A DNA stretch of 64,000 nucleotides, from NCBI GenBank assembly GCA_004556395.1, contig SFHK01000012.1, forward strand, positions 5,299-69,298, written 5' to 3'. The DNA is from Clostridiales bacterium. Lineage in GTDB: Bacteria > Bacillota > Clostridia > Christensenellales > Aristaeellaceae. The translations under genes were made by a program, and so were the position numbers. Below, piece by piece: positions 12,025-64,000 of this stretch. The notes below the pieces were generated by a model. The model was given only the letters and a program-made list of their open reading frames with translations. It did not search any database and was not told the origin of the DNA. How positions within the stretch are numbered: position 1 is the first letter of the stretch; every line of letters starts with the position of its first letter.

Positions 12025-12098
12025 GTGGAACCCTCCTTTGAATCATTGGGAAGAGCCGCTTTCATCTTCTCTTCCCCTGCCGTTCAGCAGTTGCGTAT

Positions 12099-49048: not shown

Positions 49049-50470
49049 TTAGTGGAGCACCGAAACGGCGTCGGCGATCGTCTTTTCGAGCGCCTCGCGA
49101 CCGTACTTGTCGACCTCCGCTTTGTTCTTCTCGCCGTGGGTCAGGCAGCCCGCGCCGCCGATGCAGCCGCCGACGCACGCCATACCCTCGACGAAATTGG
49201 CGTCGAGCACGTTTTTGCTCATCTTCAGAAGCGCCATGCGGCAGGCTTCAATGCCGTCGCACGAGCAGGCCTTCAGTTCAAAATCGATGTTCTGCTCCTT
49301 CAGACCCTCGGCCACCGCGTCCGCCAGACCGCCGCAGCGGGCGAAGATGCGGCCATAGTAGGACGCGTTGTCCAGCACGCCCTCTTCCAGCGTGGTAATG
49401 TCCAGATCGCGGCTGTCAAACAGCGCCTGCAGCTCTTCGAACGTCATGACCGCGTCGATATACGGGCGCACGGTATCCAGCTGCGCTTCCATCTTCTTCG
49501 CCGTGCACGGGCCGATGAACACGATCTTGGCGTTGTCCGTCGTTTCCTTTATATACTTGGCCAGCGTCGCCATCGGAGACAGGTTGCTGGAGATATACGG
49601 CACGAGCTTCGGGAACGCCTGCTGGATATACCTGACGAACGCCGGGCAGCAGGAGCTCGTGAGCCTGCCCTTTTCGGCCAGCTCGCGCGATTCCTTCTGC
49701 GCGACCATATCCGCGCCGAGCGCCGCCTCCACGACCGTGTGGAAGCCCAGCTCCTTGAGGCCGGTGATGACCTGCCCGAGCTTGGCATAGGTGAACTGAC
49801 TGGAAATGGACGGCGCGACCAGCGCGTACAGCTTGTAGTTCGCGCCGCAGTTGCTTTCCTTGATCAGCCTGATCACGTCCAGAATGAAGCTCTTGTCCAC
49901 AATCGCACCGAACGGGCACTGATACACGCACGCGCCGCAGGAGGTGCACTTGTCGTTGTCGATCACGGCGGCCTTGTTCTCGTTCACGGCGATAGCCTTG
50001 ACCTTGCAGGCGTTCTGACAGGGGCGAATGCGGTTGACGATGGCCGTGTACGGGCACACCTTCGCGCACGCGCCGCACTCCACGCACTTGGTCTTGTCGA
50101 TGTGCGCCACGTGCATATGGTCGAAAGAAATCGCCCCGCGGCGGCATACGTCTTCGCAGCGATGCGCCAGACAGCCTCGGCAGGCGTTCGTCACTTCGTA
50201 GCCGCCCACCGGACATTCATCACAGGCAATGTCGATGACCTCGATCACGTTGGGGTTCTCGCTCGACCCGCCCATGGCCATGCGCACGCGCTCGGCAAGA
50301 ATGGCGCGCTCCTTATACACGCAGCAGCGCATCGTCGGCGTGGTGCCGGGTACGATGGTATACGGGATTCGGGTGATGTTCTCAATCAGCTTATCGTCCC
50401 ATGCCAGCCGCGCCACTTCCCTAAGAACCTTGTATTTCAGATGCTGTACCTTGGTATCAAACTTGCGCAT
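49049..50470 (-). CDS. [FeFe] hydrogenase, catalytic-type (Cys-rich N-terminus plus 2x[4Fe-4S] plus H-domain; group B-like, HfsD/HydA2-like)
   Basis: H-cluster motifs L1 LTSSCCPAF, L2 IGPCTAKKME, L3 VEGMACVGGCIGGAG. Upstream are ferredoxin-type CxxCxxCxxxCP motifs. Confidence 0.85.
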   Translation of the reverse strand: MRKFDTKVQHLKYKVLREVARLAWDDKLIENITRIPYTIVPGTTPTMRCCVYKERAILAERVRMAMGGSSENPNVIEVIDIACDECPVGGYEVTNACRGCLAHRCEDVCRRGAISFDHMHVAHIDKTKCVECGACAKVCPYTAIVNRIRPCQNACKVKAIAVNENKAAVIDNDKCTSCGACVYQCPFGAIVDKSFILDVIRLIKESNCGANYKLYALVAPSISSQFTYAKLGQVITGLKELGFHTVVEAALGADMVAQKESRELAEKGRLTSSCCPAFVRYIQQAFPKLVPYISSNLSPMATLAKYIKETTDNAKIVFIGPCTAKKMEAQLDTVRPYIDAVMTFEELQALFDSRDLDITTLEEGVLDNASYYGRIFARCGGLADAVAEGLKEQNIDFELKACSCDGIEACRMALLKMSKNVLDANFVEGMACVGGCIGGAGCLTHGEKNKAEVDKYGREALEKTIADAVSVLH

Positions 50471-50485
50471 GGAAGCGTGCCTCCT

Positions 50486-51658
50486 CTAAAAGTAACTGAC
50501 CTTGATTCGCTTGCCCATCTTCCTCAGACACTCGGAAAGCTCCTTTACAAGGTTCATCTTGATGCTGAAGTTGATCGGCAGATCCGGGTTCTGGTGCGCC
50601 GGGTTAATGGCGCGTCCCACGAAGAAATTGATGTCCGTCGCCTCTTCAAACAGCAGGCGGCTGATCAGCGACGCGCCGTCGCGCTTCAGCGACCAGTGGG
50701 CGTAGCTTTCGTTGTCCTTCAGGTAGTCCTTCGCGTTTTCGAGCACCTTGTTGATCGTGATCACGCCCTCCGTGACCAGATCGACGCCCTCGATCTCCGC
50801 AATCGGCGGCACGTCGGATTCCTCGAAATTCAGCGTGGGGCGCAAAGGCTTGCCCAGATACTTCGCCGCGATAGTGGACGTGGTGCCGCCGCACACGATG
50901 TGCTTGCCCTCCTTGGAGAAGAACAGGCTCATCATGCGGTCGTTGTCGTCTCGGCTCGCCGGCGGGCCGAACAGGATGTTCATCGGCTCGCGCTTGCGGA
51001 TGCGCACGACACACGCCGTCGCATCGTCGCCGGGCTTATGGCCGTACAGCTTGTCGCATTCATCCACCAGAATCGTGGACAGCGTTTTCGCCGTATACCC
51101 CGCCGGAGCGATCGACTCCATGAAGGAGATAATGTCCTCGCGCTGCCAGCCGAAGTTGTACGCCACGCCGATGCCGGCGTGCGGGCAGCCGTCGGACATG
51201 GCGACGAAGATGTCGTTTTCCTTCAGCGTGACGACGGATTTGAAAATCTGCTTCCCGCCGATGGTCGTTTCCGTCTTGGGATAATCGTAGTTGGCGAAGT
51301 CGCGAATCAGAATCACGTGCGGATTGTCATACTGAATGATCTCCGCGCGCTCGTTGTTGATGATATGAATGATGGTGAACGTGGAATACGCCACGCCGCG
51401 CACGGAGCACACGGGCAGCGTGGCGGCGATGGTGCCGACGCAGTCCTCCAGCGAAAGCCCCTCCGCCATCATCGTGGAGATGATGGTGGAGGTCAGCGTG
51501 GACAGAATCGACGCCTTTACGCCGCTTCCCAGTCCGTCCGCCAGCACGACGATCACGGAGCTGTCGTTCTGCTCCACGATGTCCACATGGTCGCCGCACA
51601 GCTGCTCGCCGTAATGGTTCACGCTTTTGTAGCCGATATCCGCGCACAGATTATTCAT
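50486..51658 (-). CDS. PP2C/SpoIIE-family protein phosphatase (HfsC-like)
   Basis: GEQLCGDHVDIVEQNDSSVIVVLADGLGSGVKASILS is the SpoIIE/PP2C metal-binding block. It overlaps the HydS-like stop by 8 nt. Confidence 0.8.
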   Translation of the reverse strand: MNNLCADIGYKSVNHYGEQLCGDHVDIVEQNDSSVIVVLADGLGSGVKASILSTLTSTIISTMMAEGLSLEDCVGTIAATLPVCSVRGVAYSTFTIIHIINNERAEIIQYDNPHVILIRDFANYDYPKTETTIGGKQIFKSVVTLKENDIFVAMSDGCPHAGIGVAYNFGWQREDIISFMESIAPAGYTAKTLSTILVDECDKLYGHKPGDDATACVVRIRKREPMNILFGPPASRDDNDRMMSLFFSKEGKHIVCGGTTSTIAAKYLGKPLRPTLNFEESDVPPIAEIEGVDLVTEGVITINKVLENAKDYLKDNESYAHWSLKRDGASLISRLLFEEATDINFFVGRAINPAHQNPDLPINFSIKMNLVKELSECLRKMGKRIKVSYF

Positions 51659-53336
51659 TTGTGATCGACTCCTTCAGCTTCGTAAGCGCGATCTTGGTTT
51701 CCGCCGCGGTCTCGCCCAGCAGGGACGCGATTTCCTGAACGATGCGCATCTGCTTGTCGACGACCTTGTCGGCGATTTCCACCGTCTGACGGCTGATGCT
51801 TTCCTTCTTCTCGCGCTCGTTCTCCTCGTCGGTCACGTCGCGCATGATGCAGATCAGCAGCTTATACTCGCGGTCAAACAGAATCGTCTGCTCGACGTAG
51901 CGCTTGTATTCCGCCAGATACGTGCGCTGGTCGCGAATGCTGCGGCCGCTGTCGCGCACCTGCATGAAGGGAAGCGGGTCGAGAATGCGAACCACCTGGT
52001 CGCCCAGCACATCGGAGGTACTGCGGATATTCATGATGCGGCGCGCCGCCTGATTGATCTGCTGAACCTCCAGATTCTCGTTGAGCACAATCAGGCCGTT
52101 GGGCGTGTTGTTGACGATGCTGTCGGAAAAGCTTTCCGCCTTTTCCTTCAGATACGGCAGACACATGGCGATTTCGGCCTTGCCCTGATAAATGGCAATC
52201 GCCTTTTCGCGGCAGGTGTTGTAGCCGCAGGAGCCGCAGTTCAGCTCGTCCTCCTTGCGGGTCTTGCCCATCTGGCGCAGGATCGACTGAATCTCCTGCT
52301 CGTCGGGCGTCTTCGTGTGGCGGTCGATGTACTCGAAGCTCTTGTGAATCGCCATCTCCTCCGGCTGATCGACGTCAAAATCCTCGCTGCCGGCGTAGTT
52401 CACGATGGCCATATAATCCTGAACCGGCGCGCGATGGTATTTCTCCATGACCGGGCCGCCGATGCAGGAGCCGACGCACGCGGACATTTCGATGAAGCTG
52501 TGGTGCACCTTGCCGCTTTCAATGTCCTTCAGCGCGGCGATGCAGTTCTCCACGCCGTCCAGCGCCATATAGCGGTAGCCGGGCGCGTCCTGCTTCATGG
52601 TCTTGAGAATGCCGCCGGTCGTCGGGAAGAAGCGCGCGCGGCTCTTTTCGCTGGCCACACGGTGCTGACCGATCGAAATGTTCTTTTCTCTCAGCCACTC
52701 GGTAAGCTCCTCGAACGTAAGCACCGCGTCCACGATGTCCTTGTACTTCTGCGCCTCGTCCTTCTTGGCCACGCAGGGGCCGATGAACACCGTCTTGCAG
52801 CCCGGGTAACGCTTTTTCAGATCCAGACAGTGCGCCTGCATCGGGGAAACGACGTCGGCCAGATACGGCAAAAGCTGCGGGTAATACTTCTGAATCAGCA
52901 GGTTGATCGAATGGCAGCAGGAGGAAATCACGACGTCCCTGTCGCCTCTTTCGAGCATGTTTTCATACTCGGTTTTTACGATCGTCGCGCCGACGGCGGT
53001 CTCCTCCGCGCCGGCGAAGCCCAGCGCCTTCAGCGCCGCGTCCATATCCTCGATGCCGCAGTCGTCATAGTTGGCGGCGAAGGAGGGCGCCAGCGAAACG
53101 TATACCGGCTCCCTGCCCTGCAGAAGCACCTTCACGCGCTCGGTGTCGTTGACAATTTCCTTCGCGTTCTGCGGGCATACCACAAAGCAGTGGCCGCACA
53201 GGATGCACTCGTCGCCGATGATATGCGCCTGATTGCCGGAGAAGCGGATGGACTTCACCGGGCAATGCCGGATGCACTTGTAGCAGTTCTTGCAGTTGGA
53301 TTTCTTGAGCATCAAACAATCGGACACGCCTATCAT
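51651..53336 (-). CDS. sensory-type [FeFe] hydrogenase homologue with C-terminal PAS domain (HydS / HfsB-like, group C)
   Basis: N-terminal 2x[4Fe-4S]. The H-domain has altered motifs ISSCCHS, IGPCVAKKDE, EMSACVGSCIGGP. An extra CGSCGYNTC cluster and a PAS-like domain (NTPNGLIVLNENLEVQQINQAARRIM) follow. The exact start is uncertain (53336, GTG 53327 or ATG 53312). Confidence 0.85.
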   Translation of the reverse strand: MIGVSDCLMLKKSNCKNCYKCIRHCPVKSIRFSGNQAHIIGDECILCGHCFVVCPQNAKEIVNDTERVKVLLQGREPVYVSLAPSFAANYDDCGIEDMDAALKALGFAGAEETAVGATIVKTEYENMLERGDRDVVISSCCHSINLLIQKYYPQLLPYLADVVSPMQAHCLDLKKRYPGCKTVFIGPCVAKKDEAQKYKDIVDAVLTFEELTEWLREKNISIGQHRVASEKSRARFFPTTGGILKTMKQDAPGYRYMALDGVENCIAALKDIESGKVHHSFIEMSACVGSCIGGPVMEKYHRAPVQDYMAIVNYAGSEDFDVDQPEEMAIHKSFEYIDRHTKTPDEQEIQSILRQMGKTRKEDELNCGSCGYNTCREKAIAIYQGKAEIAMCLPYLKEKAESFSDSIVNNTPNGLIVLNENLEVQQINQAARRIMNIRSTSDVLGDQVVRILDPLPFMQVRDSGRSIRDQRTYLAEYKRYVEQTILFDREYKLLICIMRDVTDEENEREKKESISRQTVEIADKVVDKQMRIVQEIASLLGETAAETKIALTKLKESITNE

Positions 53337-53340
53337 TCCT

Positions 53341-53589
53341 TTACTTCAGTTTCGCCAGCACCTTTTCCTGGAAGAAGTCGCGAAAGCCTTCCTTGGTGAC
53401 GCCCGGGTAAACGTCGTCGTCTACGGTGATGGTGACGCCGTTGCGATTGCATCGGCCGGTGCAGAAGCTCCCTGCCAGCGTCACGTCTCTCTCCAGATGG
53501 TTATCCTCAATGGCCTTTTTCAGAAGGCCTACGATATCCATCGAGCCCTTCAGGTGACAGGAGCTGCCAACGCACACCTGGATGATCAT
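53341..53589 (-). CDS. thioredoxin-like [2Fe-2S] ferredoxin
   Basis: 82 aa. VCVGSSCHLKGS ... FCTGRCNRNG four-Cys pattern. Confidence 0.8.
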   Translation of the reverse strand: MIIQVCVGSSCHLKGSMDIVGLLKKAIEDNHLERDVTLAGSFCTGRCNRNGVTITVDDDVYPGVTKEGFRDFFQEKVLAKLK

Positions 53590-53831
53590 TATTTCACCTT
53601 CTCAAGCACGTTCTCTTTGAAAAACTCGTCCACGGTGTCGGGCGAGACGGAATAAATCTCGTCGCCGATCGCCACGCAGACGCCCTGCTGGCACTTGCCC
53701 ATGCAGAAGGTGCCGCCCAGCTCCACCTTGTCGGAAACGTTGTTCTCGGCAATCAGCTTCTGAAGCGAAGCGACGACCAGGCGGGAACCTTTCAGGTGAC
53801 AGGAGCTGCCGATGCAAACCGTGATTTTCAT
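53589..53831 (-). CDS. thioredoxin-like [2Fe-2S] ferredoxin (paralogue)
   Basis: Start at M7 (MKITVCIGSSCHLKGS; GAAGGAGG RBS). FCMGKCQQG second Cys pair. 1-nt overlap with the next gene. Confidence 0.8.
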   Translation of the reverse strand: MKITVCIGSSCHLKGSRLVVASLQKLIAENNVSDKVELGGTFCMGKCQQGVCVAIGDEIYSVSPDTVDEFFKENVLEKVK

Positions 53832-53845
53832 GAGAAGAACCTCCT

Positions 53846-54583
53846 TCATATGTTTCGCGGGGAAAAGATCTTTGGTATCAGAAACGCTCGTTCACGTTCG
53901 TTCGCCATCATGGTGCGCGACGCCGCGACCAGCGGCGTCCACTGCGCAATTTCCCGGGGATCGCTGTCCAGCCGCGAGCGATAGGCGTTCGCCATTTCCG
54001 CACTCTCCTCCATCTCAAGCAGAAGAAGCGTCACCGCGTCGTCCGCCGCGGCCCGCCCACGGCAGGCGCGCGCCCAGTCCACCACGGCAAAGCCGTCGTC
54101 CGCGCATTCGATCACGTTGGAAAGCATCAGATCGCCATGGCAGGGAGACGCGCCGTCCGGCATGCGCGACGTGCGCGCGATCAGCTCCGCCTTCGCGTCC
54201 TCCGCCAGCGGCGCGCGCGCGATCAGGCGCGATACGCGGCTTTTCAGCGACTCGAGGCCGTTGAGCTTGGAGGCGTGAATCTGCGTGCGCACCTGCGCCA
54301 GCGTTCGAATCGCGCTGTCCCGCTCCTCCGGGTGCCTGCGCACGCGGTCGGAAAGCGTGCGGCCGTATATGAACCGGGAGGCAATCGCCCAGCCGTCCGG
54401 CACGCGCTCGGCCGCCAGCACCTCCGGCACCGGCAGACCCGCGTCCCGCGCCGCCGCCTGATTGGCCGCTTCGCGCAGAACGTCCGCCGCCGCGACGCGG
54501 CCGGTAAAGACCTTGATGCACGTATCCCCATCCTGGTAAACGGTCTTATTGTTTCGAACCGCGATGACCCTGTCGAGATTCAT
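53846..54583 (-). CDS. phosphotransferase-family protein (APH/choline-kinase/protein-kinase-like fold)
   Basis: 245 aa. Brenner-type catalytic loop CHGDLMLSNVI and VVDWARACRG (DxD/DFG-equivalent). Start ATG 54581-54583 after AGGTGA. Confidence 0.7.
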   Translation of the reverse strand: MNLDRVIAVRNNKTVYQDGDTCIKVFTGRVAAADVLREAANQAAARDAGLPVPEVLAAERVPDGWAIASRFIYGRTLSDRVRRHPEERDSAIRTLAQVRTQIHASKLNGLESLKSRVSRLIARAPLAEDAKAELIARTSRMPDGASPCHGDLMLSNVIECADDGFAVVDWARACRGRAAADDAVTLLLLEMEESAEMANAYRSRLDSDPREIAQWTPLVAASRTMMANERERAFLIPKIFSPRNI

Positions 54584-54605
54584 GCACACTCACCTTTCGG
54601 CGCGC

Positions 54606-54619
54606 AGTCGTATACGACT
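54606..54619. promoter_or_regulatory. perfect 14-bp palindrome at the predicted transcription start of the hydrogenase operon (candidate operator)
   Basis: AGTCGTA|TACGACT, 4-17 nt downstream of the -10 hexamer on the minus strand. Confidence 0.35.
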
Positions 54620-54622
54620 CTA

Positions 54623-54651
54623 ATTGTATCGCCATACGCCCGCCCGCGCAA
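54623..54651 (-). promoter_or_regulatory. sigma-70-type promoter of the kinase-Fd-Fd-hydS-PP2C-hydA operon
   Basis: Minus strand TTGCGC, 17 nt, TACAAT. Confidence 0.5.
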
Positions 54652-54670
54652 GTACATCTTTGATATATTG

Positions 54671-55612
54671 TCATTGCTCTTTGCGATATGCCCTGAACAC
54701 CTCGCGCCGCACGTCGCAAAGCTCGGTCAGGAAGCGCTTTTCCATGTCCGTCAGCTTGAGGTCACGCCGGTAGAACAGCTCGTCCCGATACACGGTGCGC
54801 GCGAAAGCCACCGTGCGCTGCTCAAGCCCATAGCGGGAAAGCGTGCGCGGCGTGAGCGGCGCCGTCCACACATAGCTCTGCGGCTGCACGGAAAGAATTT
54901 CCAGCCGCGCCGCGCGCGACGGCGTGAGCACCCGGCGGAAATCGCCGTCCGGATACTGCTCGCGCCGAACCTCCTCGGGCGCCATCGACGGCACGTCGAA
55001 ATCGCCGGGCGCGACCTCGATCAGCGTTTTGAGTTCGTCCTCCGTCACCGGGTCGGCCGACGCGAGCGGGCTGTCCTTTGAATAGGCCAGCACCGGCGTA
55101 AACTCGACGATGCGCTCGTGAAACAACCCGCCTGCCTCCATCTGCTGCCGGAAGCGCGGGAAATAGTTGCCCGTGCAACGCGCGATGCCGATTCGGCACT
55201 CGCCCTCGGCGACGGCGCGAATGGCCGCCGCCGCGCCCGTCTCGCGGTAGTCCAGCTCCGCGGGATCGGCCGTCAGCGCGTTCAGCGTGTTCAGAAACGC
55301 CTCCGCCACATAGCAGGACGGCGGAACGCAGGCCGAGAAGCGCTGCTTCACCTGCGTTTCCTCGCGGTAGAACGCTTCCATCTCATCGATTTCACCGAGG
55401 ATTCTGCGCGCGCGCTCCAGAAAGACCTCGCCCTCCGAGGTAGGCACCATGCCGCGCGCCGTGCGTTCAAACAGGGTAATGCCCAGCGTCCCCTCGAGAT
55501 CCCGGATGGCTCGGCTCAGGTTGGGCTGGTTCATATATAATGTCTCCGACGCCCGGCTGATGGAGCCGGCTCTGGCCACCTCCACAGCATAGCGCATATG
55601 CAGGATGTTCAC
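54671..55612 (-). CDS. LysR-family transcriptional regulator
   Basis: GTG 55610-55612 lies 7 nt after GGAGG and gives (M)NILHMRYAVEVARAGSISRASETLYMNQPNLSRAIRDLE, a canonical LysR HTH. The upstream ATGs of the track ORF lie at or before the predicted TSS. Confidence 0.85.
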   Translation of the reverse strand: MNILHMRYAVEVARAGSISRASETLYMNQPNLSRAIRDLEGTLGITLFERTARGMVPTSEGEVFLERARRILGEIDEMEAFYREETQVKQRFSACVPPSCYVAEAFLNTLNALTADPAELDYRETGAAAAIRAVAEGECRIGIARCTGNYFPRFRQQMEAGGLFHERIVEFTPVLAYSKDSPLASADPVTEDELKTLIEVAPGDFDVPSMAPEEVRREQYPDGDFRRVLTPSRAARLEILSVQPQSYVWTAPLTPRTLSRYGLEQRTVAFARTVYRDELFYRRDLKLTDMEKRFLTELCDVRREVFRAYRKEQ

Positions 55613-55652
55613 ACGCGTACCTCCGTTCACCGTCCGGTGATTCATGACTTCT

Positions 55653-55681
55653 ATTATACAGCCTTTCGCGCTTTTTCTCAA
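55653..55681 (-). promoter_or_regulatory. sigma-70-type promoter of the LysR gene
   Basis: Minus strand TTGAGA, 17 nt, TATAAT. Confidence 0.5.
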
Positions 55682-55818
55682 CCATTATAAGCGCTAAATT
55701 TCGCGCACGCTACCTTTCTTTCCTCGCTTCACGCGCGTTTTCCGGCGCGGAAACCCGCCGCGCGTCTCGTTCGGGGCGATATATCCCGTGCGACAATGCC
55801 GTTATCTCAAAAAAGTAT

Positions 55819-55847
55819 TTGCACACATGCCTGTAATGGTATATAAT
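55819..55847 (+). promoter_or_regulatory. sigma-70-type promoter of the dehydrogenase-fumC-hdr-flx operon
   Basis: TTGCAC, 17 nt, TATAAT, 45 nt upstream of the first ATG. Confidence 0.55.
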
Positions 55848-55891
55848 AATCGTGGGTATTCCCGAACATATAGAGAAAGAGGGATTTTTTC

Positions 55892-56866
55892 ATGGCCGTC
55901 AACAAAATCACCGTGATCGGTGCCGGCAGCGTGGGTTCCACGACCGCGTTTGCGCTTGCTCTCAAGAACATTGCCAACGAGATCGTCATCATCGACATCA
56001 ACGAAGACAAGGCGCTGGGCGAAGCCATGGATATTCATCAGGGCACGCCCCTGTTCAGCGAGCCGGTCAACGTTTACGCCGGCGACTACAAGTCCGCCGT
56101 GGGCAGCGACATCGTCGTCATCACCTCCGGCGTGGCCCGCAAGCCCGGCCAGACGCGCATCGACCTTGCGCAGACCAACGTAAACATCATCAAGCAGATT
56201 ACCCCCCAGATCGTCCGCTCCTGCCCGGACGCGACCTACGTCATCGTCGCCAACCCGGTGGACATTCTGACCTACGTTTTCAGCAAGGTTTCCGGCATTC
56301 CGCAGAACCGCATCATCGGCTCCGGCACGCTGCTGGACACCGCGCGTCTGCGCGCCCGCATCGCCGAGTATCTGTCCGTTTCCCAGAAGAACGTGCACGC
56401 CTACGTTTTCGGCGAGCACGGCGAGACCAGCTTCGTGCCGTGGTCGATCGCCGAGGTTTCCACGATCAGCCTTGCCGACTATAAGGAACTGATCAAGCTC
56501 GATCAGGGCATCATGGTCGACCTCGACTACGACGAGATCGACAACTATATGCGCTCCTCCGGCGGCAAGATCATCCGCCGCAAGGGCTGCACCAACTACG
56601 CCATCGCCGTGTCCGTGTGCGGCATCTGCGAATGCCTGCAGGGCGGCGTGAACGCGGTCGTCACCGTTTCCACGATGCTGAGCGGCGAATACGGCATTTC
56701 CGACGTGTGCCTGTCCCTGCCGATGCTGCTGGGCAACGGAAAGGTTCAGGGCCGCATCACGCCCCGCCTGACGGACGAGGAGCTCGAGAAGCTGCACCAC
56801 AGCGCCGACGCGCTGAAGGCCGTCATCGCGCAGATCGACCTCACGATGCCCGAGACGAAGGCATAA
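55892..56866 (+). CDS. L-2-hydroxyacid dehydrogenase of the LDH/MDH family (LDH-like scaffold with Arg at the substrate-selectivity position; predicted malate dehydrogenase)
   Basis: NKITVIGAGSVGSTTAFAL Rossmann start, SGVARKPGQTRIDL loop (Arg where LDHs carry Gln), IGSGTLLDTARLR, GEHGETSFVPWS. Confidence 0.75.
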   Translation: MAVNKITVIGAGSVGSTTAFALALKNIANEIVIIDINEDKALGEAMDIHQGTPLFSEPVNVYAGDYKSAVGSDIVVITSGVARKPGQTRIDLAQTNVNIIKQITPQIVRSCPDATYVIVANPVDILTYVFSKVSGIPQNRIIGSGTLLDTARLRARIAEYLSVSQKNVHAYVFGEHGETSFVPWSIAEVSTISLADYKELIKLDQGIMVDLDYDEIDNYMRSSGGKIIRRKGCTNYAIAVSVCGICECLQGGVNAVVTVSTMLSGEYGISDVCLSLPMLLGNGKVQGRITPRLTDEELEKLHHSADALKAVIAQIDLTMPETKA

Positions 56867-56879
56867 GGGAGGCCAAAGC

Positions 56880-58244
56880 ATGAATTATCGCATTGAGCGG
56901 GATTCCATGGGCGAGATGCAGGTGCCCGCGGATCGCTACTGGGGCGCGCAGACGCAGCGCAGCTTCCAGAACTTCAAAATCGGCGGCGAGATCATGCCGC
57001 GCGAAATCACCCACGCCTTCGGCATTCTGAAGAAGGCCGCGGCAATTGCCAACCATGAATTCGGCAAGCTGGACGACCGCCGTCTGGACGTGATCAGCCG
57101 CGCCTGCGACGAGGTGATTTCCGGTTCCCTGAACGACCACTTCCCGCTGGTCGTATGGCAGACCGGCAGCGGCACGCAGTCCAACATGAACGCCAACGAG
57201 GTCATTGCCAACCGCGGCAACGAAATCGCGGGCGAAAAGCTTCTGCATCCCAACGATCACGTGAACATGTCCCAGAGCTCGAACGACACCTTCCCCACCG
57301 CCATGCACATCGCCGCGGTTACGATCATCCGCGAAAAACTGCTGCCGGCGATGGATGGCCTGATTGAAACGTTCAAGCGGCTGGAGGCCGAGAACGAGGG
57401 CATCGTGAAGACGGGCCGCACGCATCTGCAGGATGCGACGCCCATCCGCTTCTCTCAGGAAATCTCCGGCTGGCGCAACATGATCGAAAAGACGCGCGCG
57501 ATGATCGAAGCCGCGCTTCCGGGCATCAGCGAGCTGGCGCTGGGCGGCACCGCCGTCGGCACCGGCCTCAACTGCCCCAGGGAGTTCGGCCCCGTGGTCG
57601 CCCGCGTTGTAAGCGAGCTGACCGGCTATCCCTTCACCAGCGCCGCCAACAAGTTCCACGCGCTGACCAGCAAGGACGATCTGGTGTTCATGCACGGCGC
57701 GCTGAAGGCGCTGGCCGCGAACCTGATGAAGATTGCCAACGACGTGCGCTGGCTGGCAAGCGGCCCGCGCGACGGTCTGGGCGAAATCTTCATTCCGGAA
57801 AACGAGCCCGGCTCCTCCATCATGCCCGGCAAGGTAAATCCCACCCAGTGCGAAAGCCTGACGATGGTCGCCGTTCAGGTCATGGCCAACGACGTGGCCG
57901 TGGGCATGGCGGCCAGCCAGGGCAACTTCGAGCTGAACGTGTTCATGCCGGTTCTGATTTACAACTTCCTGCAGTCCGCGCGCCTGCTGGCCGACGGCAT
58001 CAATTCCTTCAATAAGAATTGCGTCTCCGGCATTCGCGCCAACCGCGAAAAGATGCACCACAACCTGTATAACTCCCTGATGCTGGTCACGGCGCTCAAT
58101 CCGTACATCGGCTACGACAACGCCGCCAAGACCGCCAAGAAGGCCTACAAGGAGAACATCTCCCTGAAGGAAGCGTGCGTGCAGCTCGGCTTCCTGACCG
58201 CGGAGCGGTTTGACGAGGTCTTTAACCCCGAGAACATGGCATAA
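56880..58244 (+). CDS. fumC: class II fumarate hydratase
   Basis: 454 aa. GSSIMPGKVNPTQCE signature of the fumarase/aspartase family and the FumC-type N-terminus MNYRIERDSMGEMQVPADRYWGAQTQRS. Confidence 0.92.
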   Translation: MNYRIERDSMGEMQVPADRYWGAQTQRSFQNFKIGGEIMPREITHAFGILKKAAAIANHEFGKLDDRRLDVISRACDEVISGSLNDHFPLVVWQTGSGTQSNMNANEVIANRGNEIAGEKLLHPNDHVNMSQSSNDTFPTAMHIAAVTIIREKLLPAMDGLIETFKRLEAENEGIVKTGRTHLQDATPIRFSQEISGWRNMIEKTRAMIEAALPGISELALGGTAVGTGLNCPREFGPVVARVVSELTGYPFTSAANKFHALTSKDDLVFMHGALKALAANLMKIANDVRWLASGPRDGLGEIFIPENEPGSSIMPGKVNPTQCESLTMVAVQVMANDVAVGMAASQGNFELNVFMPVLIYNFLQSARLLADGINSFNKNCVSGIRANREKMHHNLYNSLMLVTALNPYIGYDNAAKTAKKAYKENISLKEACVQLGFLTAERFDEVFNPENMA

Positions 58245-58256
58245 GGAGACGGCTCT

Positions 58257-59051
58257 ATGAAATTCAGTTACTTTCCCGGCTGTACGCTGAAAACCAAGGC
58301 GCGCGACCTCGATAAATGGGGACGCGAAAGCGCTTTGAAGCTGGGCGTAGAGCTGCGCGAAATCGAGGAGTGGCAGTGCTGCGGCGCGGTGTACCCGCAG
58401 GTGGAGGATGAAATCGCCTCCCGCCTGTCCTCCGTGCGCGCGCTGATGGACGCGCGAGCGCATGGAGAGGATCTGCTGACGCTCTGCTCCGCCTGTCACC
58501 ATGTGATCAAGCGCATGAACCACGACATGAAGGAAAACGAGTACGTGCGCACCCGCGTGAACAACTATCTGAAGCCCGACGTTCCCTACGCGGGCGAGAC
58601 GAAGGTGGTTCACTACCTCGAGATGCTGCGCGACACCGTGGGCTTCGACGAGATCAAAAAGCAGGTTGTGAACCCGCTGAAGGGCCGCAAAATCGGCGCG
58701 TACTACGGCTGCCTGCTGCTTCGCCCCTCCGCCGTGATGGCGTTTGACAATCCCGAGCATCCCACGATCATCGAGGATTTCCTTTCCGCCATCGGCGCGA
58801 CGAGCGTGAAATACGAGTTCCGCAACGAGTGCTGCGGCGGCTACATCGCGCTGGAGGATCGCGCGCAGGCCGCGAAGCAGGTAGAGCGCGTCCTGTCCAG
58901 CGCCGCCGGCCGCGGCTGCGAGGCGCTGGTCACCGCCTGCCCGCTGTGCATGTACAACCTGAAGCAGAACGCGGGCGAGCACGCGCTTCCGGTTTACTAT
59001 TTCACCGAGCTGCTGGCTGAGGCGCTGGGTGTAAAGGAGGAACAGGCATGA
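58257..59051 (+). CDS. hdrB: heterodisulfide reductase subunit B-like protein (two CCG domains)
   Basis: YFPGCTL...WQCCG...LCSACHH and YYGCLL...NECCGG...ACPLCMYN. These are two CCG (Cys-rich) repeats. Confidence 0.85.
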   Translation: MKFSYFPGCTLKTKARDLDKWGRESALKLGVELREIEEWQCCGAVYPQVEDEIASRLSSVRALMDARAHGEDLLTLCSACHHVIKRMNHDMKENEYVRTRVNNYLKPDVPYAGETKVVHYLEMLRDTVGFDEIKKQVVNPLKGRKIGAYYGCLLLRPSAVMAFDNPEHPTIIEDFLSAIGATSVKYEFRNECCGGYIALEDRAQAAKQVERVLSSAAGRGCEALVTACPLCMYNLKQNAGEHALPVYYFTELLAEALGVKEEQA

Positions 59052-59440
59052 ACGCAAACGAACAGATGCTTCAGGAGACCGTGACGCGCATCAGCGGCGT
59101 AAACGTGCGCAAGTGCATGCGCTGCGGAAAATGCAGCGGCACCTGTCCCGCCTACGGCGAGATGGAATATCATCCGCATCAGTTTGTCTATATGGTGGAA
59201 AAGGGACAGATTGAGAAGCTGATGGCCTCCAAATCGCTCTACAAGTGCCTGACCTGCCTGGCGTGCGTGGATCGCTGCCCGCGCGGCGTGGAGCCGGCGA
59301 AGCTGGTCGAAGCCGTGCGCCTGATGGTCATCCGCCAGCAGGGCATGAATCACCTGAAGCCCGACGACCTTCCGGGCAAACTCGACGACGAAATCCCGCA
59401 GCAGGCGCTTATGGCCGCCATGCGCAAGTACAGCAAATAA
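59048..59440 (+). CDS. hdrC: heterodisulfide reductase subunit C-like protein (2x[4Fe-4S])
   Basis: CMRCGKCSGTCP and CLTCLACVDRCP motifs, with 4-nt overlap with hdrB. Confidence 0.85.
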   Translation: MNANEQMLQETVTRISGVNVRKCMRCGKCSGTCPAYGEMEYHPHQFVYMVEKGQIEKLMASKSLYKCLTCLACVDRCPRGVEPAKLVEAVRLMVIRQQGMNHLKPDDLPGKLDDEIPQQALMAAMRKYSK

Positions 59441-59455
59441 AGGAGACGAATCAAT

Positions 59456-61441
59456 ATGCAGAGAATCGGCGTATTTGTTTGCTGGTGCGGCAGCAACATC
59501 GCGGCAACCGTCGACGTACAGGCGGTCGCCGAGGCGATGAAGCGCGAGCCGGGCGTGGTTTACGCCGCGAATTACCAGTATATGTGCTCCGAAGGCGGAC
59601 AGAAGCTGATCTCCGACGCCATTCATGAATACAACCTGACGGGCGTGGTCATCTGCTCCTGCTCTCCCCGCATGCACGAAGCCACCTTCCGCAAGACCGC
59701 GCAGCGCGCCGGTCTGAACCCCTATATGGTGGAAATCGCCAACATCCGCGAGCATTGCTCCTGGATTCATAAGGACAAGGCCGAAGCGACGGAGAAGGCC
59801 ATCATTCTGGCCCGCACCGCCGTCGCCAAGGTGCAGCTGAACGCGCCCCTCACCCCCGGCGAGAGCCCCGTGACCAAGCGCGCGCTCGTCATCGGCGGCG
59901 GTATCGCCGGCATTCAGACGGCGCTGGACATTGCCGACGCCGGCTTTGAAGTGGATATCGTCGAAAAGACGCCCACCATCGGCGGCCGCATGGCGCAGCT
60001 GGACAAGACCTTCCCCACCCTCGACTGCGCGGCCTGTATCCTCACCCCCAAGATGGTGGACGCGGCGCAGAATGAGAAGATCGACCTGCTCACCTATTCC
60101 GAGGTTGAGTCGGTCAGCGGCTTCGTTGGCAACTTCACGGTGAAGATTCGCAAAAAGGCGCGCTATGTCGACTCGACCAAGTGCACCGGCTGCGGCGCCT
60201 GCACCGAAAAGTGCCCCTCCCGCAAGGGTCTGAACGAATTCAACATGGGTCTCAACACCCGTGGCGCGATTTATATCCCCTTCGCGCAGGCCATCCCGAA
60301 CGTAGCCACGATCGATCCCACCCAGTGCCTGAAGCTGAAGAGCGGCAAGTGCGGCCTGTGCGAGAAGATCTGCTCCGCGAAGGCGATCGACTACACGCAG
60401 AAGGACGAGATCATCGAGCGTCAGTACGGCGCGATCGTCGCCGCCACCGGCTTTAAGCCCATCGACGCTTCCAAGTACGACGAGTACGGCTACTCGGACA
60501 ATCCCGACGTCGTCACGTCGCTGGAATTCGAGCGCCTGATGAACGCGGCCGGCCCCAACAAGGGCGTTCTGCTGCGTCCCTCCGACAAGCAGCATCCGCA
60601 CGACATCGTGTTCATCCAGTGCGTCGGCTCCCGCTGCGACGACCATCGCGGCAAGAGCTACTGCTCCAAGATCTGCTGCATGTACACCGCCAAGCACGCG
60701 ATGCTGGTGCGCGAGAAGTATCCCGACACCAACGTGCACGTGTTCTACATCGACGTGCGTACGCCGGGCAAGAACTTCGACGAGTTCTACCGCCGCGCCG
60801 TCGAGCAGTATGGCGTCGAGTACATCAAGGGCATGGTCGGCAAGGTCTGGAAGAACGGCGACAAGCTGATGGTGCAGGGCAGCGACCTTCTGAACGGCGA
60901 GCAGCTTCTGCTTGAAACCGACATGGTCGTGCTCGCCACCGCGATCGAGCCGGATCCCTCCGCCCGTTCCGTGGCCACGATGCTCACCGCCAGCATGGAC
61001 ACCAACGACTTCTTCACCGAAGCGCACGCGAAGCTGCGCCCCGTGGAAAGCCCGACCGCCGGCGTGTTCCTCTCCGGCACCTGCCAGGGCCCGAAGGACG
61101 TTCCGGAAACCGTCGCGCAGGCCAGCGCGGCCGCCTCGAAGGTCATCGGCCTTCTGAGCAAGGACAAGATGATCACCAACCCGTGTGTCGCCCAGTCCAA
61201 CGAGCTTCTGTGCAACGGCTGCTCGACGTGCGAGCGCGTGTGCCCCTATGGCGCCATCACCTACGTGGACAAGGAAGTCCGCGGCCCCGAGGTTCGCGGC
61301 GTGAAGCGCGTGGCGCAGGTCAACCCGGCCGTATGCCAGGGCTGCGGCGCGTGCACGGTCTCCTGTCCGTCCGGCGCGATGGATCTGAAGGGCTTCACCA
61401 ATCGAGAAATCATGGCGGAGGTTGACGCGATATGCAAGTAA
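59456..61441 (+). CDS. hdrA: heterodisulfide reductase subunit A-like FAD/Fe-S flavoprotein
   Basis: 661 aa. N-terminal Cys cluster domain, GGGIAGIQTALDIADAG FAD dinucleotide fold, inserted and C-terminal ferredoxin domains (CTGCGACTEKCP, CGLCEKIC, CNGCSTCERVCP, CQGCGACTVSCP). Confidence 0.9.
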   Translation: MQRIGVFVCWCGSNIAATVDVQAVAEAMKREPGVVYAANYQYMCSEGGQKLISDAIHEYNLTGVVICSCSPRMHEATFRKTAQRAGLNPYMVEIANIREHCSWIHKDKAEATEKAIILARTAVAKVQLNAPLTPGESPVTKRALVIGGGIAGIQTALDIADAGFEVDIVEKTPTIGGRMAQLDKTFPTLDCAACILTPKMVDAAQNEKIDLLTYSEVESVSGFVGNFTVKIRKKARYVDSTKCTGCGACTEKCPSRKGLNEFNMGLNTRGAIYIPFAQAIPNVATIDPTQCLKLKSGKCGLCEKICSAKAIDYTQKDEIIERQYGAIVAATGFKPIDASKYDEYGYSDNPDVVTSLEFERLMNAAGPNKGVLLRPSDKQHPHDIVFIQCVGSRCDDHRGKSYCSKICCMYTAKHAMLVREKYPDTNVHVFYIDVRTPGKNFDEFYRRAVEQYGVEYIKGMVGKVWKNGDKLMVQGSDLLNGEQLLLETDMVVLATAIEPDPSARSVATMLTASMDTNDFFTEAHAKLRPVESPTAGVFLSGTCQGPKDVPETVAQASAAASKVIGLLSKDKMITNPCVAQSNELLCNGCSTCERVCPYGAITYVDKEVRGPEVRGVKRVAQVNPAVCQGCGACTVSCPSGAMDLKGFTNREIMAEVDAICK

Positions 61442-61881
61442 CGGAAAACAAGGCGTTCAAGCCCCTGATCGTCGCCTTCTGCTGCAACTGGTGCAGCTAC
61501 GCGGGCGCGGATCTGGCGGGCACCAGCCGTCTGACCTATCCGGCGGATGTGAAGATCATCCGCGTGCCCTGCTCCTGCCGCGTGAATCCGCTGTTCATCC
61601 TGCGCGCGTTCCAGCGCGGCGCGGACGGCGTGATCATCTGCGGCTGCCATCCGGGCGACTGCCACTACACCACCGGCAACTACTATGCCCGCCGCCGCAT
61701 GACGACGCTGTTCAGCATGCTGGACTATCTGGGCATTGAGCGCGCGCGCACCCGCGTGGAGTGGGTTTCCGCCGCCGAGGGCGTGAAGTTCGCTTCCGTC
61801 ATGAACGACTTCGTCAAGACCGTAACCGAGCTTGGCGAGAATGTGAAGTTGGGGGATCTGAGATGCAAGGAATCGCTGTAA
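61432..61881 (+). CDS. mvhD: MvhD/FlxD-like hydrogenase iron-sulfur (delta) subunit
   Basis: 149 aa. IVAFCCNWCSYAGADLAG...IRVPCSCRVNP...ICGCHPGDCHY, the canonical MvhD pattern. 10-nt overlap with hdrA. Confidence 0.9.
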   Translation: MQVTENKAFKPLIVAFCCNWCSYAGADLAGTSRLTYPADVKIIRVPCSCRVNPLFILRAFQRGADGVIICGCHPGDCHYTTGNYYARRRMTTLFSMLDYLGIERARTRVEWVSAAEGVKFASVMNDFVKTVTELGENVKLGDLRCKESL

Positions 61882-62801
61882 GAATGTTGAATGTTGCGCG
61901 CGAAAAGCTCGCCTCCGGCGAAGTGAAGCGCGTGCTCGGCTGGGAAAAAGGCGAATTCTGGTATGATCTCACGCCCGCCTTTTTCGAAACGGAAGAGAGC
62001 CTGAACGGCTTCGTATACAACGGCTTCTCCGGCGCGAACCTGAGCAAATACCTGATCAAGGCGCGCGACTGGGAAGGCAAGACGCTCGTGTTCCTGAAGC
62101 CCTGCGACACGCTGAGCTTCAACCAGCTTCTGACCGAGCACCGCATCGACCGCGAAAAAGTCTACGTCGTGGGCGCGGGCTGCAAGGGCATGCTGGACTA
62201 TAATAAGATGAAGAAACTCGGCATCCGCAAGGAAGCCGACGTAACCGACCGTCAGGCCGTGCTGCTTGGCAAGTGCCTCGCCTGCAAGGGCAAGACCTTC
62301 TACGCCTTCGATGAGGTGATCGACGATGAAGAAGCTCAGAAGCCCATCGAGGTCGAGGATCGCTTTAACGAGGTAAAAAAGATCGAAGCTCTCTCCCCCG
62401 AGGAGCGCTTCGCCTTCTGGCGCTCGCAGCTGTCCAAGTGCATCCGCTGCAACGCCTGCCGCAACGTATGCCCGGCGTGCTCCTGCGTGAAGTGCGTGTT
62501 TGACAACCCGAACTCCGGCGTCGCCTCCAAGGCCAACCCGGACGACTTCGAGGAGAACCTGTTCCACATCATCCGCGCGTTCCACGTGGCCGGTCGCTGC
62601 ACCGACTGCGGCGAATGCAGCCGCGTGTGCCCGCAGGGCATCCCGCTGCACCTTCTGAACCGCAAGTTCATCAAGGACATCGACGAGCTCTACGGCGACT
62701 ATCAGGCCGGTCTCGAACCCGGCTCCCGCGCGCCGCTTGTCAACTTTGACAAGAACGATCCCGACCCGAAAATCGTAATGGAAAGGGGCGAAAACGCGTG
62801 A
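61863..62801 (+). CDS. Fe-S protein, FlxC-like (sulfhydrogenase beta / AsrA-related 4Fe-4S protein)
   Basis: ATG 61863 overlaps the mvhD-like gene by 19 nt. CIRCNACRNVCPACSC and CTDCGECSRVCPQG cluster motifs. Confidence 0.7.
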   Translation: MQGIAVRMLNVAREKLASGEVKRVLGWEKGEFWYDLTPAFFETEESLNGFVYNGFSGANLSKYLIKARDWEGKTLVFLKPCDTLSFNQLLTEHRIDREKVYVVGAGCKGMLDYNKMKKLGIRKEADVTDRQAVLLGKCLACKGKTFYAFDEVIDDEEAQKPIEVEDRFNEVKKIEALSPEERFAFWRSQLSKCIRCNACRNVCPACSCVKCVFDNPNSGVASKANPDDFEENLFHIIRAFHVAGRCTDCGECSRVCPQGIPLHLLNRKFIKDIDELYGDYQAGLEPGSRAPLVNFDKNDPDPKIVMERGENA

Positions 62802-63835
62802 AGAAGCTTTCCATGACGCGCCTGACCGAGGCCTTCGATCGCATCTCTGCCGCGCAGAAGCTGTACCTGCCCATCGAGAAGGCCGAGCAGGTCAATTTTG
62901 ACGAGTACGCGCCCGGCGCAAACGTGCGTCTGGACGTAACCAAGACCGTGAAGTCCGCCAAGGACGCGTTCTTCCCGCAGTGCGAGGATTTCGCGCACTT
63001 CCACATGGACGGCAAGTCCATCAATGTGAAGCCCGTCGCGCCCGAAAGCGAGCCCTTCACCGTGTTCGGCGTTCGCGCCTGCGACGCGCGCAGCTTCAAG
63101 GGCGTGCTCGATCTGGTCTTCCTGTCCGATCCGCTCGATCCCTACTACGCCGCGCGCCGTGAGCACGGCACGCTCGTGGTGCTGGCCTGCGGCAACCCCG
63201 AGGAAAGCTGCTTCTGCCAGACCTTCGGCGTAAATCCCGCTGAAAGCGCCGACGGCGACGCCAACGCGTGGATCGTGGGCGACACCATGTACCTGAAGGC
63301 CGTCACCGAAAAGGGCGAAAAGCTGCTGGCTCTGTTGGGCGACCTGCTTTCCGACGCGGACGACCAGCCCGTGGAAGCGGAAAAGGCGCGCATCCATGAG
63401 GAAATGGCGAAGCTGCCGCTGGCCGATCTTTCCGTGGAATCCCTGAAGGACGGCGCCATGATGGAAGAGTTCAACTCTCCCCGCTGGAAGGATCTCTCCG
63501 CCGCCTGCCTGGGCTGCGGCTCCTGCACGTTCGTCTGCCCCACCTGCCAGTGCTACGACATCCGCGATTTCAACACCGGTCACGGCGTGCAGCGCTACCG
63601 CTGCTGGGACAGCTGCATGTATTCCGACTTCACGCTGATGGCGCACGGCAGCAACCGTCCGACCCAGCTGGAGCGCTTCCGTCAGCGCTTCATGCACAAG
63701 CTGGTCTACTTCCCCATGAACAACGACGGCGTTTTCTCCTGCGTCGGCTGCGGCCGCTGCGTGGAAAAGTGCCCGATTCACATGAATATCGTCAAGGTCA
63801 TCAAGGCGCTGGGAGGAAAGAAACATGTCGATTGA
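62798..63835 (+). CDS. Fe-S protein, FlxB-like (AsrA / sulfhydrogenase subunit beta family)
   Basis: 345 aa. CLGCGSCTFVCPTCQCYD and CVGCGRCVEKCP motifs and the RFRQRFMHK block typical of AsrA/HydB-like proteins. 4-nt overlap upstream. Confidence 0.75.
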   Translation: MKKLSMTRLTEAFDRISAAQKLYLPIEKAEQVNFDEYAPGANVRLDVTKTVKSAKDAFFPQCEDFAHFHMDGKSINVKPVAPESEPFTVFGVRACDARSFKGVLDLVFLSDPLDPYYAARREHGTLVVLACGNPEESCFCQTFGVNPAESADGDANAWIVGDTMYLKAVTEKGEKLLALLGDLLSDADDQPVEAEKARIHEEMAKLPLADLSVESLKDGAMMEEFNSPRWKDLSAACLGCGSCTFVCPTCQCYDIRDFNTGHGVQRYRCWDSCMYSDFTLMAHGSNRPTQLERFRQRFMHKLVYFPMNNDGVFSCVGCGRCVEKCPIHMNIVKVIKALGGKKHVD

Positions 63836-64000
63836 GAATCTGGTTCCCCAGCTCGGCGTGGTCACGGCCATCCGCACCGACACGCCCGACATCAAAACCT
63901 TCCGCGTGAACGCGCTCGGCGGCGGCAAGGTGTTTGAGCACAAGCCCGGCCAGTGCGCCATGCTCTCCATCCCCGGCGTGGGTGAAGCGATGTTCTCCAT
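63825..64000 (+). CDS. FAD/NAD(P)-binding oxidoreductase, FlxA-like (AsrB / sulfhydrogenase gamma family), N-terminal fragment cut by window end
   Basis: ATG 63825 follows GGGAGGAAAG. MSIENLVPQLGVVTAIRTDTPDIKTFRVNALGGGKVFEHKPGQCAMLSIPGVGEAMFS is the ferredoxin-reductase-type FAD-binding beta-barrel start (PGQ..ML). Confidence 0.65.
   Translation, partial: MSIENLVPQLGVVTAIRTDTPDIKTFRVNALGGGKVFEHKPGQCAMLSIPGVGEAMFS

Follow-up and report, generated by a model that had tools for sequence, protein, structure and literature searches.

Which electron acceptor does an Hdr-Flx complex serve when its genes stand directly behind those of a malate dehydrogenase (MDH) and a fumarase? The question is raised by a gene cluster at the end of the window, by which we mean the whole 64,000-nucleotide (nt) stretch of contig SFHK01000012.1 analysed here, and the window end cuts this cluster off. 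The original prediction proposed that the complex is wired to C4-dicarboxylate redox chemistry and pointed to its CCG-domain (HdrB-like) protein. The wiring is borne out by genes for a TfrA/FrdA-like flavoprotein and a FrdB-like iron–sulfur protein in the same operon; the emphasis on the CCG protein has to be relaxed, as the reaction need not occur there with a FrdAB catalytic module present. We regard it as likely that the operon encodes the conversion of oxaloacetate to succinate, with Hdr-Flx feeding FrdAB. We further favour, as the probable answer, a soluble NADH-dependent fumarate reductase that uses fumarate in place of the heterodisulfide and probably bifurcates electrons to ferredoxin. 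The idea is correct but not new: this is an operon of the predicted kind and encodes a coherent pathway, and an earlier proposal exists for another species, as set out below.

Genes were assigned from an open reading frame (ORF) listing and from Pfam and NCBIfam scans. The window carries the first nine of the 12 operon genes, all on the + strand, and the nine co-directional genes from 55892 and all eight junctions between them (+13, +12, −4, +15, −10, −19, −4 and −11 nt) match exactly what had been predicted. The operon starts with mdh, a gene of the lactate dehydrogenase (LDH)/MDH family (55892–56866, 324 amino acids (aa); Ldh_1_N and Ldh_1_C), and fumC, for a class II fumarate hydratase (56880–58244, 454 aa; TIGR00979, Lyase_1 and FumaraseC_C). 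These are followed by an hdrB-like gene (58257–59051, 264 aa; two CCG domains), an hdrC-like gene (59048–59440, 130 aa; Fer4_8 and Fer4_17, with the HdrC model TIGR03290 as the top NCBIfam match) and hdrA (59456–61441, 661 aa; top NCBIfam match HdrA2). The Flx genes come next: flxD, for an MvhD-like [2Fe-2S] protein (61432–61881, 149 aa; FlpD, E = 5e-55), a flxC-like iron–sulfur protein gene (61863–62801, 312 aa; Fer4_8 and Fer4_9, with weak AsrA and FrdB-type matches), a flxB-like iron–sulfur protein gene of the AsrA/sulfhydrogenase-beta family (62798–63835, 345 aa; Fer4_22, E = 1e-29, with NCBIfam ShyB, HydB and AsrA matches all below their cutoffs) and the 5′ part of flxA, for the NAD(P)H/FAD/[2Fe-2S] subunit (63825–64000), which runs past the window end. 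For flxC and flxB the start codon is ambiguous, in that the recorded gene calls take ATGs 21 and 15 nt further downstream (61884, giving 305 aa, and 62813, giving 340 aa); these later starts turn two junctions into +2 and +11 and leave the overall picture the same. A GGGGGA lies 6 nt ahead of the flxC ATG at 61863.

The remainder of the operon was read from contigs that we assign to the same species because they share 99.2–99.4% nucleotide identity with window positions 51432–64000 across 12.6 kb. On one of these, L001, positions 1–12569 correspond to that segment at 99.4% identity (window coordinate = L001 + 51431). As had been anticipated, further subunits follow past the window end, all on the + strand: the rest of flxA (275 aa in full, ending at L001 13221; FAD_binding_6, NAD_binding_1 and DHODB_Fe-S_bind), a frdB-like gene (L001 13235–13909, 224 aa; Fer2 and two Fer4, with the N-terminal part of TfrB as the top NCBIfam match), a frdA-like gene (L001 13922–15520, 532 aa; FAD_binding_2, top NCBIfam match TfrA) and p100, found as an ORF and in the gene table, whose 100-aa product is a membrane protein of three transmembrane helices (L001 15544–15846, or 66975–67277 in window numbering). 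All seven Flx-Hdr families (FlxA–D and HdrA–C) are thus assigned from Pfam and NCBIfam, in the order hdrBCA-flxDCBA. A protein identical to FlxD occurs in 667 blocks of a public collection of assemblies, and the places displayed for it, six out of 23 contigs read, all lie on metagenome contigs; an exact look-up of the FlxB-like protein returned no match, probably owing to start-codon choice or allelic differences.

The control elements also agree with a single long transcript. The sigma-70-like promoter was found where it had been reported (TTGCAC at 55819–55824, a 17-nt spacer and TATAAT at 55842–55847, + strand), 44 nt before the mdh start codon, and a consensus scan of L001 places the end of the second hexamer at L001 4416, which is window position 55847. 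A terminator with an 11-bp stem and a T-rich tail lies 16 nt past the p100 stop codon (L001 15862–15887, + strand) and is the sole + strand terminator-like hairpin in the 13 kb of L001 scanned. The absence of an internal terminator that had been noted thus extends on L001 from mdh to the operon end, and no terminator-like site in the sequence separates fumC from hdrB, a junction at which a transcript boundary would have spoken against the C4 wiring. Because one promoter precedes mdh and the sole terminator follows p100, we predict a transcription unit of 12 genes, mdh-fumC-hdrB-hdrC-hdrA-flxD-flxC-flxB-flxA-frdB-frdA-p100. A gene for a 112-aa membrane protein beyond it (P112, L001 15919–16324) was rejected as a thirteenth member, being separated from p100 by the strong terminator and a perfect TTGACA-16-TATAAT promoter. 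This promoter is P112's own, of the perfect extended sigma-70 type (TTGACA-16-(TG)TATAAT), and the protein gives sub-threshold Pfam hints only. A conventional thiol–disulfide carrier encoded just downstream could have offered another explanation for the Hdr proteins; at this locus, no DsrC/TusE-like gene was found within 10 kb on either side on the same-species contigs. The two small proteins encoded downstream were rejected as such carriers: both belong in the membrane, and neither reaches the gathering cutoff of any Pfam model.

The FrdA-like protein bears on the question of substrate. Its NCBIfam ranking is led by TfrA, the flavoprotein of thiol:fumarate reductase (NF004900; 338 bits against a cutoff of 718, with profile positions 6–420 of 546 covered), followed by SdhA/FrdA and NadB models. 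Among its PDB matches, 7d6v_A and 1nek_A lead by sequence and 1kf6_A by fold, and its AlphaFold model (mean predicted local distance difference test (pLDDT) score of 72) is matched best by E. coli FrdA and various SdhA structures. Residues H318, T334, E335, R359, H431 and R465 correspond to H242, T254, E255, R286, H354 and R399 of E. coli SdhA (1nek_A), and these six dicarboxylate-binding or proton-shuttle residues are invariant in 81 sequences. The histidine that carries covalent FAD (SdhA H45) is replaced by N127, which is likewise invariant in the 81 sequences. The Pfam scan detected no Succ_DH_flav_C (PF02910) domain in the protein, which has a conserved 88-aa N-terminal extension. The FrdB-like partner contains one 2Fe-2S motif and two CxxCxxCxxxC [4Fe-4S] motifs and does not match the 3Fe-4S pattern; Pfam finds no CCG domain in its 224 aa, the CCG pair sitting in the separate HdrB-like protein. 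No membrane anchor gene is present in the operon. We infer that FrdAB is soluble, with FAD bound non-covalently.

Two other identities of the FrdA-like protein were rejected. It does not read as an L-aspartate oxidase, given that all six residues of the fumarate/succinate site are invariant and a FrdB-type partner is always adjacent, nor as a subunit of a classical quinol:fumarate reductase, given the missing anchor, N127 in place of the covalent-FAD histidine and the missing 3Fe-4S motif. More distant FrdAB relatives, at 43–46% identity, occur without Hdr linkage. In two loci (L088 and L089, 9366–12891), frdB and frdA, at 46% identity and with the same N-terminal extension, form a trio with a gene for a NuoF-like subunit (Complex1_51K, NADH_4Fe-4S) on contigs otherwise rich in cytochrome c genes; this trio is possibly a simple soluble NADH:fumarate reductase. 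From this distribution, FrdAB looks like a soluble module that can be moved around and combined with one or another NADH-oxidising unit. One cluster representative, P0122 (727 aa), aligns with FrdA over residues 217–727 and has about 216 extra N-terminal residues, and it may be a FrdB–FrdA fusion or a merged gene call.

The Hdr proteins fit the pattern of a methanogen-type HdrABC. The HdrB-like protein, the single CCG protein encoded by the operon, has two CCG motifs of the methanogen type (C9-X31-C41C42-X34-C77xxC80 and C152-X39-C192C193-X34-C228xxC231), whose CC-to-C spacing of 34 residues is one under that of the quoted CX31-39CCX35-36CXXC. All ten cysteines of the two motifs are invariant in 57 sequences. 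Its closest solved structures are HdrB chains (8rvv_B and 5odc_B), and its scores of 142 bits against HdrB (cutoff 345) and 139 bits against SdhE of methylmenaquinol:fumarate reductase are both below cutoff. HdrC contains eight cysteines in two CxxCxxCxxxC motifs, corresponding to two [4Fe-4S] clusters. HdrA aligns over its full length with the bifurcating HdrA of M. wolfeii (5odc_A; 699 bits, residues 3–658 against 5–648), with cysteines on both sides in every cysteine-containing motif; which of these ligate clusters we take to be as in the 5ODC structure. HdrA is the presumed bifurcating FAD site. Because the NCBIfam equivalog cutoffs are missed by both HdrB and HdrA (the latter at 802 bits against 1100 for HdrA2), HdrABC is, on these scores, a homologue of the CoM-S-S-CoB reductase rather than an equivalog. 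The TfrB profile of NCBIfam is covered in succession by FrdB (positions 18–152), HdrC (122–220) and HdrB (408–487), and HdrB and FrdB together resemble a split TfrB.

The first two operon genes would supply the fumarate. In the MDH, R83 occupies the position of Q102 of Bacillus stearothermophilus LDH, as seen in the alignment to LDH 4m1q at the specificity site ('vaRkpgqtr' here against 'aaQkpgetr'). Exchange of Q102 for arginine is reported to turn that LDH into a malate dehydrogenase (work said to be by Wilks and co-workers, in 1988). The residue is arginine in 49 of 49 operon-linked orthologues, in which R89, D149, R152 and H176, the counterparts of catalytic R109, D168, R171 and H195, are also invariant. 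At 337 bits the protein passes the NCBIfam L-LDH model TIGR01771 (cutoff 304), and it falls 2 bits short of the model for the MDH subfamily (281 against 283). Despite that pass, we rejected L-lactate dehydrogenase for the first gene on account of the arginine at the Q102 position in all 49 orthologues; as judged by this residue, the product is an NAD-dependent malate dehydrogenase of the LDH clade. It is an annotation trap, in that the L-LDH cutoff is passed yet the oxaloacetate-specifying arginine is present. PDB entry 1y6j, deposited as a C. thermocellum 'L-lactate dehydrogenase', carries the same arginine. FumC scores 726 bits against the TIGR00979 cutoff of 665 and is a class II fumarase.

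A scan of the FrdA-family alignment against one genome per species gave at least 596 loci, of which the best 80 (70–83% identity) were examined by a tblastn census with 10-kb flanks anchored on frdA, the upstream edge falling just past mdh. Nearly all of these 80 loci belong to Clostridia from the guts of humans, ruminants or other animals, and they include the isolates Christensenella tenuis NSJ-35 (L015), Yeguia hominis NSJ-40 (L047) and Ohessyouella blattaphilus (L061). The order hdrB-hdrC-hdrA-flxD-flxC-flxB-flxA-frdB-frdA is collinear on one strand in all 56 loci that reach hdrB, and the remaining 24 are contig-truncated suffixes of the same hdrB...frdA order. Upstream of this core, 35 of the 56 loci have both mdh and fumC, 13 mdh only, 3 fumC only and 5 neither, so that the adjacency of the dehydrogenase and fumC, on whose conservation the original prediction had staked its case, holds across species. 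Loci without an upstream fumC have class I fumarase alpha and beta genes (PF05681 and PF05683) downstream of frdA. A fumarase gene is found in 52 of 56 loci (39 of the 41 in which at least 3 kb of downstream sequence is present) and a gene for an MDH of the R102 type, with arginine at the Q102 position, in 48 of 56. Because the hdrB...frdA block is invariant while the fumarase, MDH and transporter genes vary, we take its products to be subunits of one enzyme.

The variable transporter slot follows frdA and is filled by an Asp-Al_Ex (AAE-family) transporter gene in 29 loci and by p100 in 14. SucE, which exports succinate from C. glutamicum, belongs to the AAE family. The p100 family, with about 1,400 members, has no Pfam model. 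The AlphaFold model of p100 (pLDDT 87) resembles SemiSWEET and the mitochondrial pyruvate carrier, with TM-scores of 0.65–0.71 and E-values of about 0.1 that are weak, as expected of a three-helix protein. As a structural likeness, this is suggestive of a transporter, and p100 could be a new, small transporter of carboxylates. Three loci belong to metagenome-assembled genomes labelled Bacteroidaceae (L051), Treponema (L068) and Planctomycetota (L075), with FrdA 70–74% identical to Clostridia versions; the operon is complete in the first two and truncated at flxC in the third. Binning contamination is more likely than lateral transfer in these cases.

A similar arrangement has been described before. 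The 'succinate operon' of Pseudoclostridium thermosuccinogenes (CDQ83_RS03365-RS03315) comprises a fumarate hydratase gene, seven Flx-Hdr genes, two fumarate reductase genes and a gene for a hypothetical membrane protein that is 'potentially a succinic acid transporter' (PMC7282089). It is expressed as a unit and about 4-fold up under CO2 limitation, and high H2 abolishes succinate formation in this organism (PMC7282089). An electron-bifurcating fumarate reductase has been proposed for it (PMC7282089, citing Koendjbiharie & van Kranenburg, Preprints 2019, 10.20944/preprints201912.0288.v1). Compared by description, gene content and order are alike and the proposed function is the same: our locus, too, has a fumarase, seven Flx-Hdr genes, two frd genes and a small membrane protein gene between one promoter and one terminator. 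It differs in that an MDH of the R102 type heads the operon, and also in its host, a mesophilic, uncultured species of Clostridia from the human gut. The statement that the combination had not been characterised therefore stands in part: a full-text literature search found no biochemical data on this or a homologous Hdr-linked fumarate reductase, and the novelty claim falls to the earlier proposal (PMC7282089). Relative to that paper alone, what is new is the R102 MDH in the operon, the alternation of class I and class II fumarases and of AAE and p100 transporters, the breadth in gut Clostridia and the residue-level support. A 2024 preprint, which besides that paper was all that the search brought up, reports STRING links between HdrA and the succinate dehydrogenase flavoprotein in Firmicutes, which it terms 'unusual'.

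Comparison with known systems shows likenesses and differences. FlxABCD-HdrABC of Desulfovibrio vulgaris (Ramos et al. 2015, Environ Microbiol 17:2288) consists of the same seven protein families, with the gene order inverted relative to the hdrBCA-flxDCBA order here. The acceptor proposed in Desulfovibrio is DsrC, whereas here no DsrC/TusE-like gene lies nearby and frdBA is joined to the operon in every relative examined. The TfrAB and MvhADG-HdrABC systems of Methanothermobacter, reportedly described by Heim and co-workers in 1998 and Wagner and co-workers in 2017, are alike in that FrdA is closest to TfrA and that the overall chemistry passes a low-potential reductant via Hdr to fumarate. 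In TfrB, however, the FrdB and CCG parts are fused, whereas they are separate genes here, and all scores are sub-equivalog; the locus encodes neither a TfrA at equivalog score nor a TfrB-type fusion. Methanogens rely on CoM-SH and CoB-SH as mediator, which diffuses, and their CCG domains come in two sets, against one set here. Complex II (FrdABCD and SdhABCD) shares the flavoprotein fold and active site and the 2Fe-2S-containing subunit, and differs in the covalent-FAD histidine (N127 here), PF02910 (absent here), the 88-aa extension, the second motif (four cysteines here) and the anchor and quinone site (none here). In type E SdhABE, SdhAB has a CCG protein, SdhE, as its partner; against the SdhE model, the HdrB-like protein of this operon reaches 139 bits. 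The energetic logic predicted here is that of the NADH-dependent Bcd-EtfAB and caffeyl-CoA reductase-Etf, in which NADH can reduce ferredoxin because a C=C bond is reduced exergonically at a potential near 0 mV (PMC5861303); their proteins (Etf and acyl-CoA dehydrogenase) are unrelated to those here, and the analogy is functional only.

We propose the following route. Oxaloacetate would be reduced to malate by the R102-type malate dehydrogenase of the LDH clade, malate dehydrated to fumarate by FumC and fumarate reduced to succinate by soluble FrdAB, with succinate exported probably by the operon's own p100. NADH would be oxidised by FlxA, and its electrons would pass through FlxB, FlxC and FlxD to the FAD of HdrA. 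There the pair would be split: the high-potential electron would run through HdrC and the non-cubane clusters of HdrB to FrdB, the FAD of FrdA and fumarate, and the low-potential electron would reduce ferredoxin, giving 2 NADH + fumarate + Fd(ox) → 2 NAD+ + succinate + Fd(red, 2 e−). Reduced ferredoxin would be re-oxidised by hydrogenase or Rnf. Fumarate would thus play the part of CoM-S-S-CoB in methanogens or of crotonyl-CoA in Bcd-Etf, and quinone-free Clostridia would obtain an energy return on fumarate reduction. With ferredoxin taken at about −450 mV, our own calculation makes the bifurcating net reaction exergonic by roughly 40 kJ/mol. Succinate oxidation by confurcation was rejected on standard potentials, as its donors would average about −210 mV (ferredoxin at about −450 mV) against −320 mV for NAD. 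The fumarate/succinate and NAD couples stand at +33 mV and −320 mV, respectively (PMC5861303).

We favour a direct path from HdrC through HdrB to FrdB because a relay of Hdr and Tfr needs two CCG sites and the operon encodes one, because FrdB, HdrC and HdrB map onto successive parts of TfrB, and because CCG proteins partner SdhAB in type E enzymes, in which this partnership is established. Bifurcation to ferredoxin without a thiol intermediate may occur, and we hold the chances to be about even. Similarly balanced, in our judgement, is the fuller proposal that HdrABC-FlxABCD-FrdAB would be one soluble bifurcating supercomplex with fumarate as acceptor and no thiol, the HdrB clusters acting purely as a relay into FrdB.

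Several points weigh against a bifurcating, thiol-free fumarate reductase. The literature search mentioned above returned no biochemistry for it. HdrB retains all ten cysteines of two non-cubane clusters, and to our knowledge the sole established role of such clusters is thiol/disulfide chemistry, which leaves some room for a thiol intermediate. We know of no demonstration in vitro of NADH-driven bifurcation, the Flx-Hdr prototype of Desulfovibrio included. Since NADH alone reduces fumarate exergonically, thermodynamics does not call for bifurcation. FrdAB can also work without Hdr, as shown by its distant relatives, whose partner is a plain NADH module of the NuoF-like type. Finally, the genomic evidence is confined to the locus and its flanking contigs.

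Two of these points would be accounted for by a non-bifurcating NADH:fumarate reductase, the same complex with Hdr-Flx as a mere electron wire and no ferredoxin reduced: electron flow from NADH to fumarate is exergonic unaided (potentials from PMC5861303), and the FrdAB relatives of L088 and L089, which adjoin a single NuoF-like gene only, suggest that simple NADH:fumarate reductases exist. We nevertheless consider it unlikely. Seven additional subunits, among them a full-length HdrA with all cysteine motifs aligned, would be an extravagant wire, and the loss of succinate at high H2 in P. thermosuccinogenes is, in our reading of that study, consistent with obligatory ferredoxin reduction (PMC7282089).

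The complete, invariant CCG motifs of HdrB in the 57 sequences and the closeness of the FrdA-like protein to TfrA of thiol:fumarate reductase would both fit a methanogen-like two-step scheme of Hdr and Tfr, in which Flx-Hdr reduces some disulfide and the resulting thiols reduce fumarate through FrdAB. Thiol oxidation of the Tfr type needs CCG domains of its own, however, and FrdB (224 aa) has none in an operon with one CCG protein; nor is there a DsrC/TusE-like carrier gene in the operon or after it. Such a scheme is improbable in our view.

Co-regulation of two separate systems, with Flx-Hdr acting on a DsrC-like or other disulfide protein encoded elsewhere and FrdAB fed by another donor, could appeal to the tie between the Flx-Hdr prototype and DsrC (Ramos et al. 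2015, as cited in PMC7282089). It sits poorly with an hdrB...frdA block whose order and tight spacing are kept in 56 of 56 species-level genomes while the surrounding genes vary, and is very unlikely. That the FrdA-like protein acts on something other than fumarate, such as L-aspartate (NadB) or another enoate, is hardly credible: NadB models do score nearly equal to SdhA/FrdA models, urocanate reductase is among the PDB matches, Pfam Succ_DH_flav_C was not detected and some gut FAD_binding_2 reductases act on other enoates, but the six fumarate/succinate-site residues are invariant, the FrdB-type Fe-S partner is always adjacent and, of the 56 loci, 52 have a fumarase gene and 48 a gene for an oxaloacetate-specific MDH.

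Upstream of the operon, and divergent from it as had been noted, lies a gene for a LysR-family regulator (54671–55645, − strand; HTH_1, E = 6e-21). If translation began at an alternative TTG, the gene would reach 55681, and gene calls of same-species contigs record a 324-aa gene. An inverted-repeat search of the lysR–mdh intergenic region found an imperfect 16-nt palindrome, GCGCTAAATTTCGCGC (55691–55706), which is a candidate LysR box and may serve as operator. Directly adjoining lysR is a − strand hydrogenase and regulator block (49049–54589) with genes for a [FeFe] hydrogenase (49049–50470), a PP2C/SpoIIE-type phosphatase (50486–51658), a homologue of the HydS-like sensory hydrogenase with an extra PF04060 Fe-S motif (51651–53336), two NuoE-like 2Fe-2S proteins (53341–53849) and an APH-family kinase (53846–54589). 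The block resembles the putative H2-sensing module reported for Ruminococcus albus. It may be no coincidence that a ferredoxin-consuming hydrogenase stands beside a predicted ferredoxin-producing fumarate reductase.

Automatic annotation will probably give wrong names to most parts of this system: in existing records the flavoprotein goes by 'FAD-dependent oxidoreductase' and HdrA by 'CoB--CoM heterodisulfide reductase'. The operon is a directly testable candidate for a new bifurcating class, and cultured carriers exist, among them P. thermosuccinogenes, for which CRISPRi is established (PMC9044749). If the proposed mechanism is true, ferredoxin reduction could be driven by fumarate as it is by crotonyl-CoA, caffeyl-CoA and CoM-S-S-CoB, and the finding would explain how Clostridia that lack quinones or a membrane-bound fumarate reductase gain energy while making succinate. 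If the supercomplex is real, it would represent a new class of bifurcating enzyme and the main succinate route of quinone-free gut and rumen Clostridia. Succinate has known roles in cross-feeding and host signalling. With relatives of the flavoprotein in at least 596 species-level genomes and the operon common, it could be a significant, currently unannotated source of succinate in the gut.

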